The position numbers were made by a program, and so were the translations under genes. A stretch of DNA of 64,000 bases, taken from positions 1,865,748 to 1,929,747 of the forward strand of contig CBDCYU010000003.1 of NCBI GenBank assembly GCA_965224345.1. The letters are read 5' to 3'. The notes under the pieces were generated by a model. The model saw only the letters and a list, made by a program, of their open reading frames with translations, did no database searches and was not told the DNA's origin. This DNA is from Dehalococcoidia bacterium (GTDB lineage: Bacteria > Chloroflexota > Dehalococcoidia > Lucifugimonadales > CBDCYU01). Positions 12,094 through 64,000 of the stretch are shown here, in pieces; within the stretch, counting starts at the first letter, position 1, and each line of letters starts with the position of its first letter.

Positions 12094-12501
12094 ATGAGCC
12101 GCAAATCGTACCCCAGCGACCTGACGGACGAACAGTGGGAGATCCTCGGCCCCCTACTCCCACCAGCCAAGCCCGGAGGCCGGCCCCGTACAGTGGACCT
12201 GCGGGAGGTAGTGAACGGCATCCTGTATTTGCTTCGGAGCGGATGCCCCTGGCGGATGGTCCCGCACGATCTGCCTCCCTGGCAGACCCTGTACAAATAC
12301 TTCCGCAGTTGGACCATAGATGGAACGTGGGAACGAGTCAATGAGACGCTACGCCCCTGCGTCCGAGAGGCCGAAGGTAGAAATCCTACTCCCAGCGCAG
12401 CGATCATAGATAGCCAGAGCGTGAAGACGACTGAAAAAGGGGGCCTCGTGGCTATGATGCTGGTAAGAAGATCAACGGTCGAAAGCGACACGTCATCGTA
12501 G
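12094..12501 (+). CDS. IS5/IS427-group transposase OrfA
   Basis: [53 protein letters not shown], the typical DUF4096-like N-terminal transposase domain. Confidence 0.85.
12433..12440 (+). promoter_or_regulatory. Candidate programmed -1 ribosomal frameshift site (GAAAAAGG; A AAA AG slippery run)
   Basis: Frame 0 reads ACT GAA AAA GGG. Slipping back one base gives AAA AGG GGG CCT CGT GGC TAT GAT (KRGPRGYD), which restores the conserved transposase sequence. Confidence 0.65.
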
Positions 12502-12878
12502 ATACCATGGGCTTGCTGTTGGCGGTGGTGGTGCATCCTGCCAATATCCAAGACCGAGATGGGGCGAGGCTGGTCATCGATAAATTGATAGGACGATTCC
12601 CACGCCTGCGACTCATCTGGGCTGACGCTGGCTACAGCGGCCAGTTGGTGGACTGGGTGATGTCCATGTCGGGCTGGGTCTTGGAGATCGTCAAGCGTCC
12701 CAGGGCCAGCCATCAGTTTGAGGTGCTGCCACGCAGGTGGGTGGTTGAGCGAACACTGGCGTGGCTGGGACGTTGTCGCCGGTTGAGCAAGGACTATGAA
12801 GCCTTGACCGGTACAACGGAAGCGTGGCTGCATATAGCTGCGATTCATCTCATGCTCCGACGCTTAGCTCCGTCATGA
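12435..12878 (+). CDS. IS5/IS427-group transposase OrfB frame (DDE domain), presumably expressed as an OrfAB fusion by -1 frameshifting
   Basis: The -1 frame reads ...[44 protein letters not shown]...IWADAGYSG...[22 protein letters not shown], the conserved DDE blocks. The track lists only 12507-12878. Confidence 0.8.
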
Positions 12879-61076: not shown

Positions 61077-61898
61077 ATGCCCCCTCAGCCGCAAGACGGT
61101 CATCTACAGGTAGGGGAGCTCCAACTCCACTACCTCCGGTGGGGCGACGCCTCGGCCCCGCCGATGCTGCTTCTGCACGGACTCCAGGACTGCGCCCGCA
61201 GCTGGGACGTCTTCGCCTCCGCCATGTCCCGCGACTATAACGTCGTGGCCCTGGACCACCGGGGCCACGGCGACAGCGAGTGGGCCGACCGGTACCGCCT
61301 CAACGACTACGTCGAGGACGTGAAGGCGCTGGTCGAGGCCCTCTCCCTGCGAGACTTCGTGCTCGTGGGACACTCGGCCGGCGGACGCAACGCCTTCCTC
61401 TACACCGTGCGCCACCCGGAGATGGTGAGAGCCCTGGTCATCGTCGACATCGACCCCGACGCCGCCAACCCGGAGTCGGCCTCCATGTTCCAACGCTACA
61501 AGACGGAGTCCGACGAGTGGGGCTCCCTGGACGCCGTGATCGAGAGGCTGCGCTCCCGCCAACCCAGCTCCACCGACGAGACGCTGGCCCACCAGGCCCG
61601 GCACATGACGCGGCAGTCCCCCGGCGGGAAGAGGGTGTGGAAGCGGGACCGCAGGCTCGTCGAGGCCTACGAGAGGCCCGACCTCTGGGCCGAGTGGTCC
61701 CGCATCGAGTGCCCCACCCTCATCGCCAGGGGCCGTCAGAGCAACCTCCTGACCCACGAAGTCGCCGTCAGGATGCGCGAGGCCATCCCCCGCGCCCGCC
61801 TCGCCGAGCTCGAGGGCGGCGGCCACTGGTTCTACCAAGAGCTCCCCGGCCCCTTCGAGGCCACCATCCGCTGGTTTTTGGAGGCCCCTCCGGCGTAG
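61077..61898 (+). CDS. Alpha/beta hydrolase
   Basis: LLLHGL oxyanion region, nucleophile elbow VGHSAGG, C-terminal GGHW. Confidence 0.85.
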   Translation: MPPQPQDGHLQVGELQLHYLRWGDASAPPMLLLHGLQDCARSWDVFASAMSRDYNVVALDHRGHGDSEWADRYRLNDYVEDVKALVEALSLRDFVLVGHSAGGRNAFLYTVRHPEMVRALVIVDIDPDAANPESASMFQRYKTESDEWGSLDAVIERLRSRQPSSTDETLAHQARHMTRQSPGGKRVWKRDRRLVEAYERPDLWAEWSRIECPTLIARGRQSNLLTHEVAVRMREAIPRARLAELEGGGHWFYQELPGPFEATIRWFLEAPPA

Positions 61899-62054
61899 GG
61901 CATTACCTCTGAGGGCTAGAACGGGCTGAATTGCTCCAAAAAGGTCCATCTAACGGATAGACAAAGCTACGATAACCATGGTATTATTCAGGTTGGTTTG
62001 CGATTATTCGAGAGCGCCTTTCGGAGACAACATTTTTGCAAAAAGGAGGCTACA

Positions 62055-62240
62055 ATGGGCAGTGGAAATTGGCATCAGGACGTCAGCATGGAGAATGCCC
62101 GCGCGGCCAGCATGGCCATTAGAAAGACCATTAGGAACGTTGAGGAAGCTTTAGGCATTGCTTTCCCTCGCGGGGGCAGTCCTAGTGAAGACAGGGATAT
62201 GATGGTTGAAGTCCTCAGGGACTTGCTGTATGGGCGATGA
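62055..62240 (+). CDS. Hypothetical small protein (61 aa)
   Basis: AAGGAGG lies 5-6 nt upstream of ATG 62055. AT-richer region. Followed directly by the 44-bp palindrome. Confidence 0.45.
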   Translation: MGSGNWHQDVSMENARAASMAIRKTIRNVEEALGIAFPRGGSPSEDRDMMVEVLRDLLYGR

Positions 62241-62284
62241 GGTCAGCCGGGGCCACTATAGCGCTATAGTGGCCCCGGCTGACC
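62241..62284. repeat. 44-bp perfect palindrome (22-bp arms, no loop)
   Basis: GGTCAGCCGGGGCCACTATAGC|GCTATAGTGGCCCCGGCTGACC, located between the small ORF's stop codon and the HARE-HTH gene. Confidence 0.95.
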
Positions 62285-62314
62285 TAGAAATCACCAGAAT
62301 CAGGGAGGAATCTC

Positions 62315-62827
62315 ATGGCCAACGAATCTACGATCAGCGACTTGAAAGCGGCGATTGGGAAGTTGAGGGCAGAGAGACGCCGGATCGAAGAACAGCATCG
62401 TGCGCTAGTCACGACTCTGCGGTTCTTCGAGGAGTCGGAGCCGGGTACAGAGCTCACGTCATCTTCGATTCCGACGCAGGGCCATTTCGAGAGTTCGGGG
62501 TCCCAGCGTAAGCGCGCCGATAACGACCTGCGCAACGCAATGGCGCAAATACTGGCGGCCGAAGGCCCGCTGCACCGCCGGGAAGTCCATGATCGCCTCG
62601 TGGAGATGGGCGTGCACGTGGGGGGCCAAGACCCGATCAATAACGTGGGGGCACACCTGAGCATCGATCCGCGTTTCACGAATGTAGGCAGAGGCGTGTG
62701 GGGCCTGACGACGCAAGACGACACTGAGCCCGACATATTTGGCACCGAACCCGAAGGAGAAAGTGACAGTCTCTTCGATAATCAGGAAGAGGATGACTCA
62801 GATGAGGAGGACAAAGTCGCATGGTGA
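62315..62827 (+). CDS. HARE-HTH (winged-helix) protein with N-terminal coiled coil and acidic C-terminal tail (RNAP delta-like architecture)
   Basis: GGGAGG RBS. ILAAEGPLHRREVHDRLVEMG...HLSIDPRFTNVGRGVWGL matches the HARE-HTH signature. Tail is DDTEPDIFGTEPEGESDSLFDNQEEDDSDEEDK. Confidence 0.65.
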   Translation: MANESTISDLKAAIGKLRAERRRIEEQHRALVTTLRFFEESEPGTELTSSSIPTQGHFESSGSQRKRADNDLRNAMAQILAAEGPLHRREVHDRLVEMGVHVGGQDPINNVGAHLSIDPRFTNVGRGVWGLTTQDDTEPDIFGTEPEGESDSLFDNQEEDDSDEEDKVAW

Positions 62828-63234
62828 AGAGCAACGGACAGTCAATCTTGAGAGCAGAGTCAGAAGGAGGAGTTATGAGACGCAGCGAAATGTATCGACG
62901 GATAGGACTTGCGCCTGAGCGATGGAACTGCTCGGAGAAAGAGCGGCACTCGATCCAAGCGGATGCCGCCAAGGCATCTCTCGCCCATAGACGGCGAATC
63001 TCCGTATGCTACGGCGTAAATGAATACTGGTGTCGTGAACACCAATGTTGGCACTGGGGTCATACCGATAAGCACAGAGTGGCTAATCGGATCATGTGGG
63101 AAAGCCTCGTTTGGTTCATGGCGTGGCAGACTCAGTCCAAGCCCGCCACGACACTGCCAACTCCAAGTAGCGTTGGTCTACTACCGGAAACTTTATGGCT
63201 TGTCCAAGCGCTGAGGCACGGGAGTGCCACATGA
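62821..63234 (+). CDS. Hypothetical Cys/His/Trp-rich protein
   Basis: Overlaps the upstream stop by 7 nt (ATGGTGA); alternative ATG 62875 follows AAGGAGGAG. Stop overlaps the helicase start (ATGA). Contains CYGVNEYWCREHQCWHWGH. Confidence 0.5.
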   Translation: MVKSNGQSILRAESEGGVMRRSEMYRRIGLAPERWNCSEKERHSIQADAAKASLAHRRRISVCYGVNEYWCREHQCWHWGHTDKHRVANRIMWESLVWFMAWQTQSKPATTLPTPSSVGLLPETLWLVQALRHGSAT

Positions 63235-64000
63235 TCTCGACAAGAAATGAAGACCCGGCATACCAAGAGGAAGCCCAGAAGCTGACGGAGGTGGTCCAGT
63301 ACATCACCGAGGCGCGCCACAACATGCAGGGTCAGATGCCGGCGACGGCGGCGCATCAGGAGGCGGCGGACGCTATACAGGAGATCCTGCAGGAGAACGC
63401 CGACACGCTTTACTCCGCGCTGGAGCGGCCATACTTCGGACGCATCGACTACTTCGATAAAGGCGACATAGCCTCTGTCCAAGGACAGGTTGATGAGGAA
63501 CCGGACGACCTTGCCAAGCAGCGGCGAAAGATCTACCTAGGGATCACTTTCATCCCCGGCCACGACGTCTTCAGCTGGACGTCGCCCGTGGCAAAGCTCT
63601 GGTATACCCAGAGCTACGAGGACGGCTACACGGCGCCCAGGGGCTATATCCCCACCAGGGTCGATCTGAAGCGCTACCTCCGCATCAGGGAGAGCCGTCT
63701 CGAAGACCTGAACGACATATTCCGCCGGCAGCTCCCCGCTCCCGACACGGCCAGACAGGGCATCCTGACCGAGGCCCTCAGCGGGGTCGGCAGCGATGAC
63801 GGCCACCTGCAGGTGATCGTCGAGACGATAGAGCCGGGCCAGTACGAGAGCATCGCCAACGTCAGCGACAGAGTGCTCATCGTTCAGGGAGCGGCGGGAA
63901 GCGGCAAGAGCGAGATCGGGCTGCATCGAATCGCCTACCTGCTGTCTCCGCACAACGAGATTCCCGCACGCGAGCGGCCCACGCCGGACACCACACTGTT
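63231..64000 (+). CDS. HelD-like superfamily-1 (UvrD-type) helicase, N-terminal part (3' end outside window)
   Basis: Frame is open to the window end and is not in the supplied track. ERPYFGRIDYF, KIYLGITFI, VFSWTSPVAKLWY, Walker A VQGAAGSGKSEIGLHRIAYLL. Confidence 0.8.
   Translation, partial: MISTRNEDPAYQEEAQKLTEVVQYITEARHNMQGQMPATAAHQEAADAIQEILQENADTLYSALERPYFGRIDYFDKGDIASVQGQVDEEPDDLAKQRRKIYLGITFIPGHDVFSWTSPVAKLWYTQSYEDGYTAPRGYIPTRVDLKRYLRIRESRLEDLNDIFRRQLPAPDTARQGILTEALSGVGSDDGHLQVIVETIEPGQYESIANVSDRVLIVQGAAGSGKSEIGLHRIAYLLSPHNEIPARERPTPDTTL

Follow-up and report, generated by a model that had tools for sequence, protein, structure and literature searches.

A gene cassette containing a HelD-like ATPase was analysed in a 64,000-nucleotide (nt) stretch of a Dehalococcoidia bacterium assembly (GCA_965224345.1, contig CBDCYU010000003.1, positions 1,865,748 to 1,929,747 of the forward strand), which we call the window. 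Four co-directional open reading frames (ORFs) follow an alpha/beta-hydrolase gene near the 3' end of the window. These are a short gene that we named gene0, a winged-helix protein (ORF1), a small protein rich in Cys, His and Trp (ORF2) and a superfamily 1 (SF1) ATPase related to the RNA polymerase (RNAP) recycling factor HelD. The ATPase gene is truncated by the window end at 64000, which leaves 256 N-terminal amino acids (aa) readable. The ORFs and their coordinates had been placed correctly by an initial annotation of this DNA, and the AT-richer island that it described was also seen, with the GC content dropping from 0.66-0.70 to 0.53-0.60 across 61750-63250. The drop is not unique in the window: of its 64 one-kb bins, one has a lower GC content than the 62-63 kb bin (the second-lowest), and four others fall below 0.59. 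The stop codon of ORF1 and the first ATG of ORF2 (62821) share a 7-nt overlap, ATGGTGA, and the ORF2 stop overlaps the helicase ATG (63231) in ATGA. The coordinates of all features are collected in Table 1.

The coupled genes and their products

Relatives were collected with a helicase-alignment scan that covered one genome per GTDB species. About 50 Chloroflexota loci were found, mostly from Dehalococcoidia, followed by Firmicute HelD at about 30% identity. With hidden Markov models (HMMs) built from the cassette proteins, about 16 of the 29 closest species loci were found to have ORF1 and ORF2 directly 5' of the helicase; no more distant locus had them. Approached from the ORF1 side, all five contexts showed ORF1, a small ORF and a helicase of 750-780 aa, with unrelated flanks. 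The three genes are therefore co-conserved, in at least 16 Dehalococcoidia species genomes and in 5/5 ORF1 contexts with differing neighbourhoods; presence of the cassette among close species is patchy. At least 10 related loci keep the ORF1/ORF2 overlap, as ATGGTGA or GTGGTAA. In 14 of 21 loci, from genomes with a GC content of about 65%, the third position of the Pro/Ala codon preceding the terminal Trp of ORF1 is A, which preserves the overlapping ORF2 ATG. In 19 of 21 loci, the GC content of the partner genes is 6-11 points lower than that of their flanks, the helicase is intermediate, and the cassette as a whole is AT-richer than its surroundings in nearly all loci. The cassette proteins are nameless in the source databases. 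The exact ORF1 and ORF2 sequences have no database record, yet an identical ORF1 (P0116) was present in a protein collection. A pattern-limited genome scan with single ORF1 peptides returned no relative. Phage and plasmid collections held no relatives of ORF1 and ORF2, and IMG/VR held only 3 distant HelD genes, close to contig ends.

The helicase falls within the HelD family, as first proposed. The best model for the window fragment was NCBIfam HelD_BACSU (NF041464; E=4.6e-22, model positions 85-254). The remainder of the gene is carried by two ENA contigs syntenic with the window (L001 and L002, in our numbering of loci), at 85-87% identity. Full-length orthologues (761 and 767 aa) came from related loci, as no helicase match of the protein search exceeded 447 aa; the frameshift splits in the ENA contigs explain these fragments. 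These orthologues scored 213.5 and 194.2 bits against HelD_BACSU (cut-off 419), 101 and 88 bits against HelD_MYCSM (cut-off 1051), 94-110 bits against HelR (cut-offs 750-1100) and 30-43 bits against PcrA/UvrD. HelD_BACSU is thus the top-scoring family by far, though the scores stay below the NCBIfam equivalog cut-off. The top PDB match was Bacillus subtilis HelD (6wvk_H, 7.9e-40), and a second HelD structure, that of Mycobacterium smegmatis (6yxu_H), matched at 1.1e-21.

The N-terminal region of the helicase aligns to B. subtilis HelD residues 91-302, and the 2A region of the full-length orthologues aligns to 6wvk_H residues 520-763. The sequence ERPYFGRIDYF, at helicase residues 65-75, is invariant among 22 relatives. 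In the full-length orthologues, Walker B ([IV]V[IV]DEAQD) is found 280-308 residues past Walker A, which indicates an arm insertion in domain 1A; the same distance is 259-333 residues for Firmicute HelD in the same scan. The helicase thus resembles B. subtilis HelD, a class I member, in its SF1-derived motor family, its PYFGR domain, its cage Trp and a 1A arm insertion of similar length. It differs in the Trp-cage motif, which is SWTSP in the window and SWT[S/A]P across the clade, with the Trp and [S/A]P kept and the Asp and Arg replaced. Firmicute loci in the same scan carry DWR[A/S]P, a motif called absolutely conserved in HelD (PMC8655204). The stretch before PYFGR has about 66-75 residues, compared to about 95-100 in Firmicutes, making the arm ~25-30 residues shorter. 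The N-terminal arm tip, QMPATAA, is non-acidic, in contrast to the acidic tip (D56/D57) of the B. subtilis arm (PMC7749167).

The class II proteins HelD and HelR (M. smegmatis, Streptomyces) are likewise HelD-family ATPases and gave weak but significant model matches. They too have a short secondary-channel arm, and they are often multi-copy and horizontally mobile (PMC8655204). The helicase sequence is nearer to class I, and class II has no described partner genes of its own. Chloroflexota are absent from the published scheme of three HelD classes, and the string "chloroflex" has 0 occurrences in PMC8655204. On sequence grounds, the helicase is a divergent HelD-family member that is closest to class I and is no orthologue of B. 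subtilis HelD. The 32 columns specific to partner-linked helicases showed no obvious basic pocket.

The helicase gene is split by frameshifts into two or three ORFs in long-read ENA contigs (L001 7981-10246, L002 9965-11979 and L003 10001-12303). With coverage of 5-18x, the frameshifts may reflect misassembly and not pseudogenes. Directly 3' of the fragmented helicase of L002 is a DUF772 transposase-like gene. A second clade of Dehalococcoidia helicases (L045-L058) has S[RH]NAP in place of DWR[A/S]P and is missing the cage Trp; these genes have no partner genes and sit in a housekeeping neighbourhood.

ORF1 combines a HARE-type winged helix with an acidic tail, as the initial annotation had described. 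An AlphaFold2 model built on a 38-sequence homologue alignment predicted a helix (residues 2-41), a disordered linker, a winged helix (62-131) and a disordered tail (132-170). The predicted local distance difference test (pLDDT) score was 78 for the whole model, with both the helix and the winged helix at about 95. At 39 aa, the tail contains 17 D/E residues, carries a net charge of -16 and ends in VAW. Against Pfam HARE-HTH (PF05066), ORF1 scored 20.4 bits (E=7e-4; gathering threshold 25.9), and against DUF3320, a related winged-helix model, it scored 27 bits, above the cut-off of 25. Homologues L018 (26.0 bits) and L027 (38.3 bits, with two copies) exceed the HARE-HTH cut-off, and P0119, P0120, P0124 and P0138 carry a precomputed PF05066 annotation. 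The fold of the 62315-62827 product is thus probably HARE-type. Homologues conserve the N-terminal helix (ESTIxDLxAAIxxLExEKRxIxEQxRAL), the winged-helix core and an acidic run ending in [VIL][PA]W. Their DNA-binding part is variable, with one or two HARE-HTH copies, an added N-terminal Mrr_N domain, or Mrr_N alone. The Mrr_N-alone version is that of L001, at the same chromosomal position as the window.

ORF1 had been called delta-like, after the delta subunit (RpoE) of B. subtilis RNAP. As a mechanistic analogy this is apt, since B. subtilis HelD binds delta via its acidic C-terminal region and not via its N-terminal domain (PMC7749165), but as a statement of homology it was not supported. 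The delta model TIGR04567 gave 14.8 bits against a cut-off of 42, over 21 residues only. PDB profile searches with ORF1 or its winged helix found no delta chain at E<=1 or E<=10, and hhalign against the B. subtilis delta N-terminal domain gave a probability of 18.6% over 25 residues. Foldseek found generic winged helices only, all with E>=9e-3, among which delta chains ranked 5, 25, 31, 33 and 34, all with E>=0.02. In ORF1, as in delta, a winged helix that is probably HARE-type precedes a disordered acidic tail. In delta, the HARE-type domain directly precedes a polyanionic disordered region of 83 aa with a net charge of -47 (PMC7749165), whereas ORF1 has an extra N-terminal 40-residue helix and linker, a 39-aa tail and a terminal [VIL][PA]W that is not known in delta. 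Judged from these comparisons, ORF1 is no delta orthologue, with nothing specific to delta detected past the generic HARE signature.

ORF2 is basic (pI 9.7). Using the residue numbers of the 119-aa version, C19, K22, A31, Y51, C53, H56, W59, H60, G62 and H63 are invariant across cassette copies, and H56 alternates with Cys in distant members, as expected of a metal ligand. This ligand pattern suggests that ORF2 is a Zn-binding adaptor. A strong AAGGAGGAG precedes a further candidate start at 62875; the conserved overlap and the "MV" N-termini across loci make 62821 at least as likely. No Pfam family was found for ORF2. A profile made from the window ORF2 and three close relatives was searched against 1.84 billion representative proteins and returned 57 clusters at 50% identity. 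The PHROGs families 15216 and 14788, both of unknown function, were matched by 15 and 11 of 51 ORF2 members. The AlphaFold2 model, made from 4 sequences, was poor (pLDDT 50), and sequence and profile searches of the PDB with ORF2 gave nothing meaningful. At L088 (341-915), a distant 73-aa ORF2 member with a CxxC variant overlaps the end of a VRR_NUC gene, on a short contig with small overlapping genes. This locus suggests that the ORF2 fold also occurs on phage-like elements without the helicase. ORF2-type proteins form a widespread, uncharacterised small Cys/His family with phage-borne relatives.

Table 1. Coordinates of the cassette, its upstream elements and the preceding gene in the window
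Feature	Position	Strand	Basis or remark
alpha/beta-hydrolase gene	61077-61898		5' of cassette; Pfam Abhydrolase_1, E=2e-30
promoter-like site TAGACA-18-TATTAT with TG	61958..61987	+	5' of gene0; consensus scan only
gene0, 61 aa, optional first cassette gene	62055..62240	+	ATG after AAAGGAGG (Shine-Dalgarno)
perfect palindrome, 46 nt, two 23-nt arms, no spacer	62240..62285	.	between gene0 and ORF1
ORF1, 170 aa	62315..62827	+	AlphaFold2 model, Pfam matches, 38 homologues
ORF1 N-terminal 40-residue helix	62318-62437	+	AlphaFold2
ORF1 HARE-type winged helix	62498-62707	+	AlphaFold2, Pfam
ORF1 acidic disordered tail ending D-K-V-A-W	62708-62824	+	AlphaFold2, charge
ORF2, 137 aa from overlapping ATG 62821; 119 aa from 62875	62821..63234	+	conserved core 62929-63063
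HelD-like SF1 ATPase, N-terminal 256 aa	63231..64000	+	orthologues 746-791 aa
helicase PYFGR	63429-63443	+	predicted helical hairpin precedes
helicase SWTSP	63573-63587	+	motif
helicase Walker A GAAGSGKS	63888-63911	+	motif

Interchangeable partner sets and a shared acidic tail

A neighbour-joining tree of 70 full-length helicases separated Firmicute HelD, a partnerless Dehalococcoidia clade that adjoins housekeeping genes (MutS, Lhr and others), and a second Dehalococcoidia clade with a partner-carrying crown. The basal members of the latter are partnerless and lie beside AspRS and TyrRS. Not every crown locus has ORF1 and ORF2. Loci L015, L017 and L034, as well as the metagenomic L003, carry two DndB-like genes (ParB fold) 5' of the helicase instead and are nested among the crown ORF1/ORF2 loci. 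L013, with ORF1 and ORF2, and L017, with the DndB-like pair, are sisters in the tree, and L012 and L017 have the same downstream gene. The ORF1 and ORF2 pair has been replaced in situ by a HEPN-DndB-like and DndB-like pair in sister lineages. The N-terminal domain of the first DndB-like protein is a HEPN domain of the Swt1 type, whose Rx4H motif is intact. The gene of the second overlaps the helicase start.

The second DndB-like protein ends, as ORF1 does, in an acidic run followed by VPW, VAW or LPW. A third partner family, C45, which is found in L020 and L026 and weakly resembles DUF2924, has [VI]PW at its end. The acidic tail is therefore not peculiar to a delta-like protein and is found on three unrelated families of partners of the same helicase clade. 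A census of tails was made over 8439 six-frame ORFs of at least 40 aa from 88 loci. Only 37 ORFs end in [VILF][PA]W, and 33 of these are helicase-adjacent partners of the three families; the other 4 are non-acidic and look spurious. Partnerless helicase loci in this census had no ORFs with this ending. Since the helicase is the only component common to all tail-bearing contexts, the [VIL][PA]W acidic tail is probably a docking peptide for the motor.

In several species, large Lhr-type helicases were seen within a few kb of partnerless HelD-like genes (L032/L035 214-4491, L045 8477-12517 and L054 52-3519). Two of these Lhr-type helicases are matched by PADLOC DpdF models (up to 2e-218). The Lhr and HelD-like genes of L032 and L035 are separated by a DpdB-like gene that has no Trp tail and overlaps the start of the HelD-like gene. 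Lhr, TyrRS, AspRS, MutS and a set of DUF1800-DUF1501-NHL upstream genes were considered as parts of the system and were rejected as synteny or housekeeping neighbours.

Proposed role and competing explanations

We propose, with a probability of roughly 0.45, that the genes of this region function as a single cassette, in a system specific to the Dehalococcoidia lineage and built around a HelD-family ATPase, a motor docked to a sensor, with a role in genetic conflict. The partner would be anchored on nucleic acid by its variable DNA-binding module, whether a single or double HARE-HTH, Mrr_N, the DndB-like domain with its ParB fold or the DUF2924-like domain. The constant acidic, Trp-tipped tail would then dock on the HelD-like motor and recruit or license it, in analogy to delta and HelD of B. 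subtilis. In the ORF1-type partner set, the basic, putatively Zn-binding ORF2 and the N-terminal helix of ORF1 would form an adaptor part. Finally, the motor would act as HelD-family proteins are known to, using its arms and ATP to clear partner-marked DNA of RNAP or of another complex that binds tightly. Because the sensors are swappable and of restriction or conflict type, the HEPN RNase of the alternative set is intact, the GC content is consistently lower and presence is patchy, we infer a role in nucleic-acid surveillance or conflict, of a defence type, which we favour over general housekeeping. RNAP rescue and defence, both considered in the initial annotation, are still candidate roles.

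The likeness to known conflict systems lies in the sensors. The ORF1 family has HARE-HTH, DUF3320 and Mrr_N, the alternative set has DndB and HEPN_Swt1, and modular swapping of the same kind occurs in such systems. HARE-HTH, Mrr_N and DUF3320 are found on type IV restriction enzymes. Swt1-HEPN-ParB fusions and DUF3320-type winged helices on giant SF1-helicase proteins are restriction-modification or defence components (PMC3710099). There the domains are fused or linked to nucleases, while here they are linked to a HelD-type motor. The alternative partners match PADLOC DndB and DpdB models, but the rest of those systems is missing, and the cassette has no Dnd or Dpd modification genes. At L092 (1-5408), a Dnd-type island adjoins one cassette in divergent orientation, with DndB, GIY-YIG, GmrSD_N/C, PAPS_reduct (DndC-like) and a cysteine-desulfurase-type aminotransferase. 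Insertion sequence (IS) elements are found in or near some cassettes. Gabija also has an SF1 UvrD-type core in a small operon, and PADLOC GajB core models matched the helicase at 1e-14 to 1e-7. These matches are confined to the shared 1A/2A core (residues about 510-680) and score far below those of HelD models. GajB has no HelD-specific N-terminal domain or arm, and a GajA-like partner is missing here. The PADLOC matches of the helicase are generic GajB/UvrD-core matches only, and ORF1 gave one coiled-coil-type match, PDC-S37 (E=1.5e-3).

A number of observations weigh against a conflict system. The winged-helix core is strongly conserved, with a mean column identity of 69%, and is not diversifying. 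The ORF1/ORF2 version has no recognisable nuclease or toxin, and PADLOC-DB 2.0 gave no system-specific match for the cassette and none at all for ORF2 and gene0. Most cassettes lie among metabolic genes. PADLOC matches in the flanks are few (some restriction-modification and PDC matches in crown loci, none in controls) and statistically unconvincing. A DUF1800-DUF1501-NHL synteny common to eight loci, from 8 species, points to long vertical inheritance, and a pattern-limited scan found one HelD-like gene per complete chromosome, which fits a housekeeping HelD. The receptor of the tail was deduced from co-occurrence only. RNAP binding is assumed for a helicase that has neither the D nor the R of the DWR motif and has a shorter N-terminal arm.

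Several of these points would suit a housekeeping RNAP-recycling machine analogous to delta and HelD. Here the winged helix would sit on RNAP, the tail would compete with nucleic acids and recruit HelD, ORF2 would be an extra RNAP- or HelD-binding subunit, and the DndB-like sets would be unrelated add-ons. The helicase does belong to the HelD family, ORF1 has the architecture of a HARE-HTH domain with an acidic disordered tail, B. subtilis HelD binds the acidic region of delta (PMC7749165), and delta and HelD are synergistic (PMC8655204). The single HelD-like gene per chromosome and the synteny in 8 species also agree with it, and a highly conserved winged-helix core is expected for a conserved target such as RNAP. 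However, no relation of ORF1 to delta past the generic HARE signature was detectable with TIGR04567, PDB profiles or hhalign, and a winged helix that is duplicated, supplemented or replaced by Mrr_N is hard to fit to a fixed RNAP docking domain. The identical tail type is found on ParB-fold DndB-like and DUF2924-like proteins, partner sets were exchanged between sister helicases, and about half of the closest helicases and all of the deeper ones have neither ORF1 nor ORF2. The tail is also much smaller than that of delta (39 aa and -16 compared to 83 aa and -47), and the anomalously low GC of the partner genes would have to be explained. We therefore consider such a machine possible but rather unlikely.

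The C-terminal tip of single-stranded DNA-binding protein (SSB) is of the D-D-D-I-P-F type. The partner tails resemble it as disordered, portable docking peptides with an acidic run, an aliphatic residue, Pro or Ala, and a C-terminal aromatic residue, so the [VIL]PW end could mimic SSB and the partners could bring the motor, or other clients of SSB, to certain DNA structures or lesions and clear roadblocks in repair or replication conflicts. Lhr-type repair helicases lie less than 6 kb from several partnerless relatives, and HelD was first linked to replication-transcription conflicts (PMC7749167). This is an improbable explanation, as the resemblance is only an analogy, the terminal residue is Trp and not Phe, and the carriers are double-stranded DNA-type binding proteins and not SSB. 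Moreover, HEPN RNase, Mrr_N and HARE-HTH are untypical of repair modules, and the low GC and partner swapping would be left unexplained. Winged-helix proteins are often operon regulators, and a perfect palindrome lies just 5' of ORF1, so ORF1 could be merely an autoregulatory repressor of the helicase operon, acting for example on the palindrome, with ORF2 unrelated and no complex formed. We find this still harder to accept, because the palindrome is unconserved in sequence and missing from most loci, a regulator needs no conserved acidic Trp-tipped tail common to DndB-like and C45 partners, and the translational coupling of the three genes is conserved.

Protection from rifamycins, which had also been suggested for this operon, received no support. 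Two reports describe HelD and HelR as shielding RNAP from rifamycins (bioRxiv 2021.05.10.443488, PMC12802891), and a HelR-like guard that frees RNAP of such inhibitors with ORF1 and ORF2 as helpers would be in line with the weak HelR model matches of 94-110 bits. Those scores are far under the HelR cut-offs and class I HelD matches better. No resistance-gene match from Pfam or PADLOC was found in the annotated neighbourhoods, although no search was aimed at a rifamycin-linked context. The DNA-binding partners and the HEPN domain would be unexplained as well, making this a very remote explanation. Even taken jointly, the repair, regulator and antibiotic-guard explanations are unlikely. A bolder form of the conflict system that we favour is that Chloroflexota turned HelD-type motors into the effectors of a modular immune or surveillance system, in which interchangeable sensors dock by their tails and host RNAP is stripped from foreign or modified DNA, an immunity by transcription eviction. 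We regard this extension as doubtful.

Neighbouring features and significance

Upstream of ORF1, the promoter consensus scan gave 3 sites compared to 0.6 expected from shuffles, which is no evidence of function. Homologues of gene0 share the pattern AIxKTIR...LG[IV]xFPRG[ST]PSE[SD]RxIM and occupy the same position in L002, L005/L016 and L012. The cassette-protein HMM search of related loci found gene0 in only four loci, and gene0 has no Pfam or NCBIfam match. The palindrome has no T-run 3' of it and is thus no canonical intrinsic terminator; it may be an operator, an RNA hairpin or a repetitive extragenic palindrome (REP)-like element. L005 has a different perfect inverted repeat of 18 nt at the equivalent relative position, and L002, L012 and L004 have no inverted repeat there. 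Rfam and tRNA scans of the window were empty.

The alpha/beta-hydrolase gene varies between the syntenic contigs. After "GDSEW", L002 (7883-8752) has an in-frame insertion of one SPSQGEIER copy and a short leader, and L001 (5627-6715) has SPSQGEIER three times in tandem, twice with the extension TQHETHL. The insertion is missing from the window gene. On the 3' side of the cassette, a 307-387-aa protein is found in L001 (10527-11450) and L002 (13605-14528), and also near a clade-2 HelD-like gene in L050 (8942-10105). It has no Pfam match, contains the internal duplication ETDDGRxxVRFLVDxMQGxLxGxKPxHRL twice, and is expected just past the window end. Elsewhere in the window, 12094-12878 falls in the lowest-GC 1-kb bin (0.558) and has two + strand ORFs (135 and 123 aa) that by eye resemble a frameshift-split transposase, possibly IS5-type. 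In the AT-richer segment 46898-47553 (GC 0.571), small ORFs of 90 and 167 aa overlap on the + strand, and the 90-aa ORF resembles, by eye, an antitoxin or a small regulator.

Earlier work covers the winged-helix and motor families and the binding of an acidic tail by HelD, but not the operon, its third protein, the interchangeable partner sets or the rule of the Trp-tipped tail. In agreement with the initial annotation, which knew of no description of the arrangement, we found no paper on HelD coupled to HARE-HTH, DndB-like or small Cys/His partners, or on the shared tail. Known HelD proteins, from Firmicutes, Actinobacteria and Deltaproteobacteria, are stand-alone factors that recycle RNAP or guard against antibiotics. 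The sole described partner, delta, is encoded elsewhere, and the Firmicute genes are unlinked, whereas the genes here are translationally coupled, include a third protein of putative Zn-binding type and have partners that are interchangeable with DndB-like proteins. The present case adds a HelD branch from a fourth phylum with dedicated, translationally coupled and swappable partners.

The acidic tail ending in [VIL][PA]W also provides a simple, testable recognition rule and a peptide-level handle for experiments. If the tail docks on the motor, this would explain how HelD-type motors are addressed to specific sites, and the interaction of delta with HelD would gain a broader evolutionary frame. 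If the immunity reading is true, acidic-tail binding would be an ancestral, general way of addressing HelD motors, with the Firmicute delta as one instance. If the role of the cassette is defence, it would represent a new effector logic, in which RNAP is removed instead of nucleic acid being cut.

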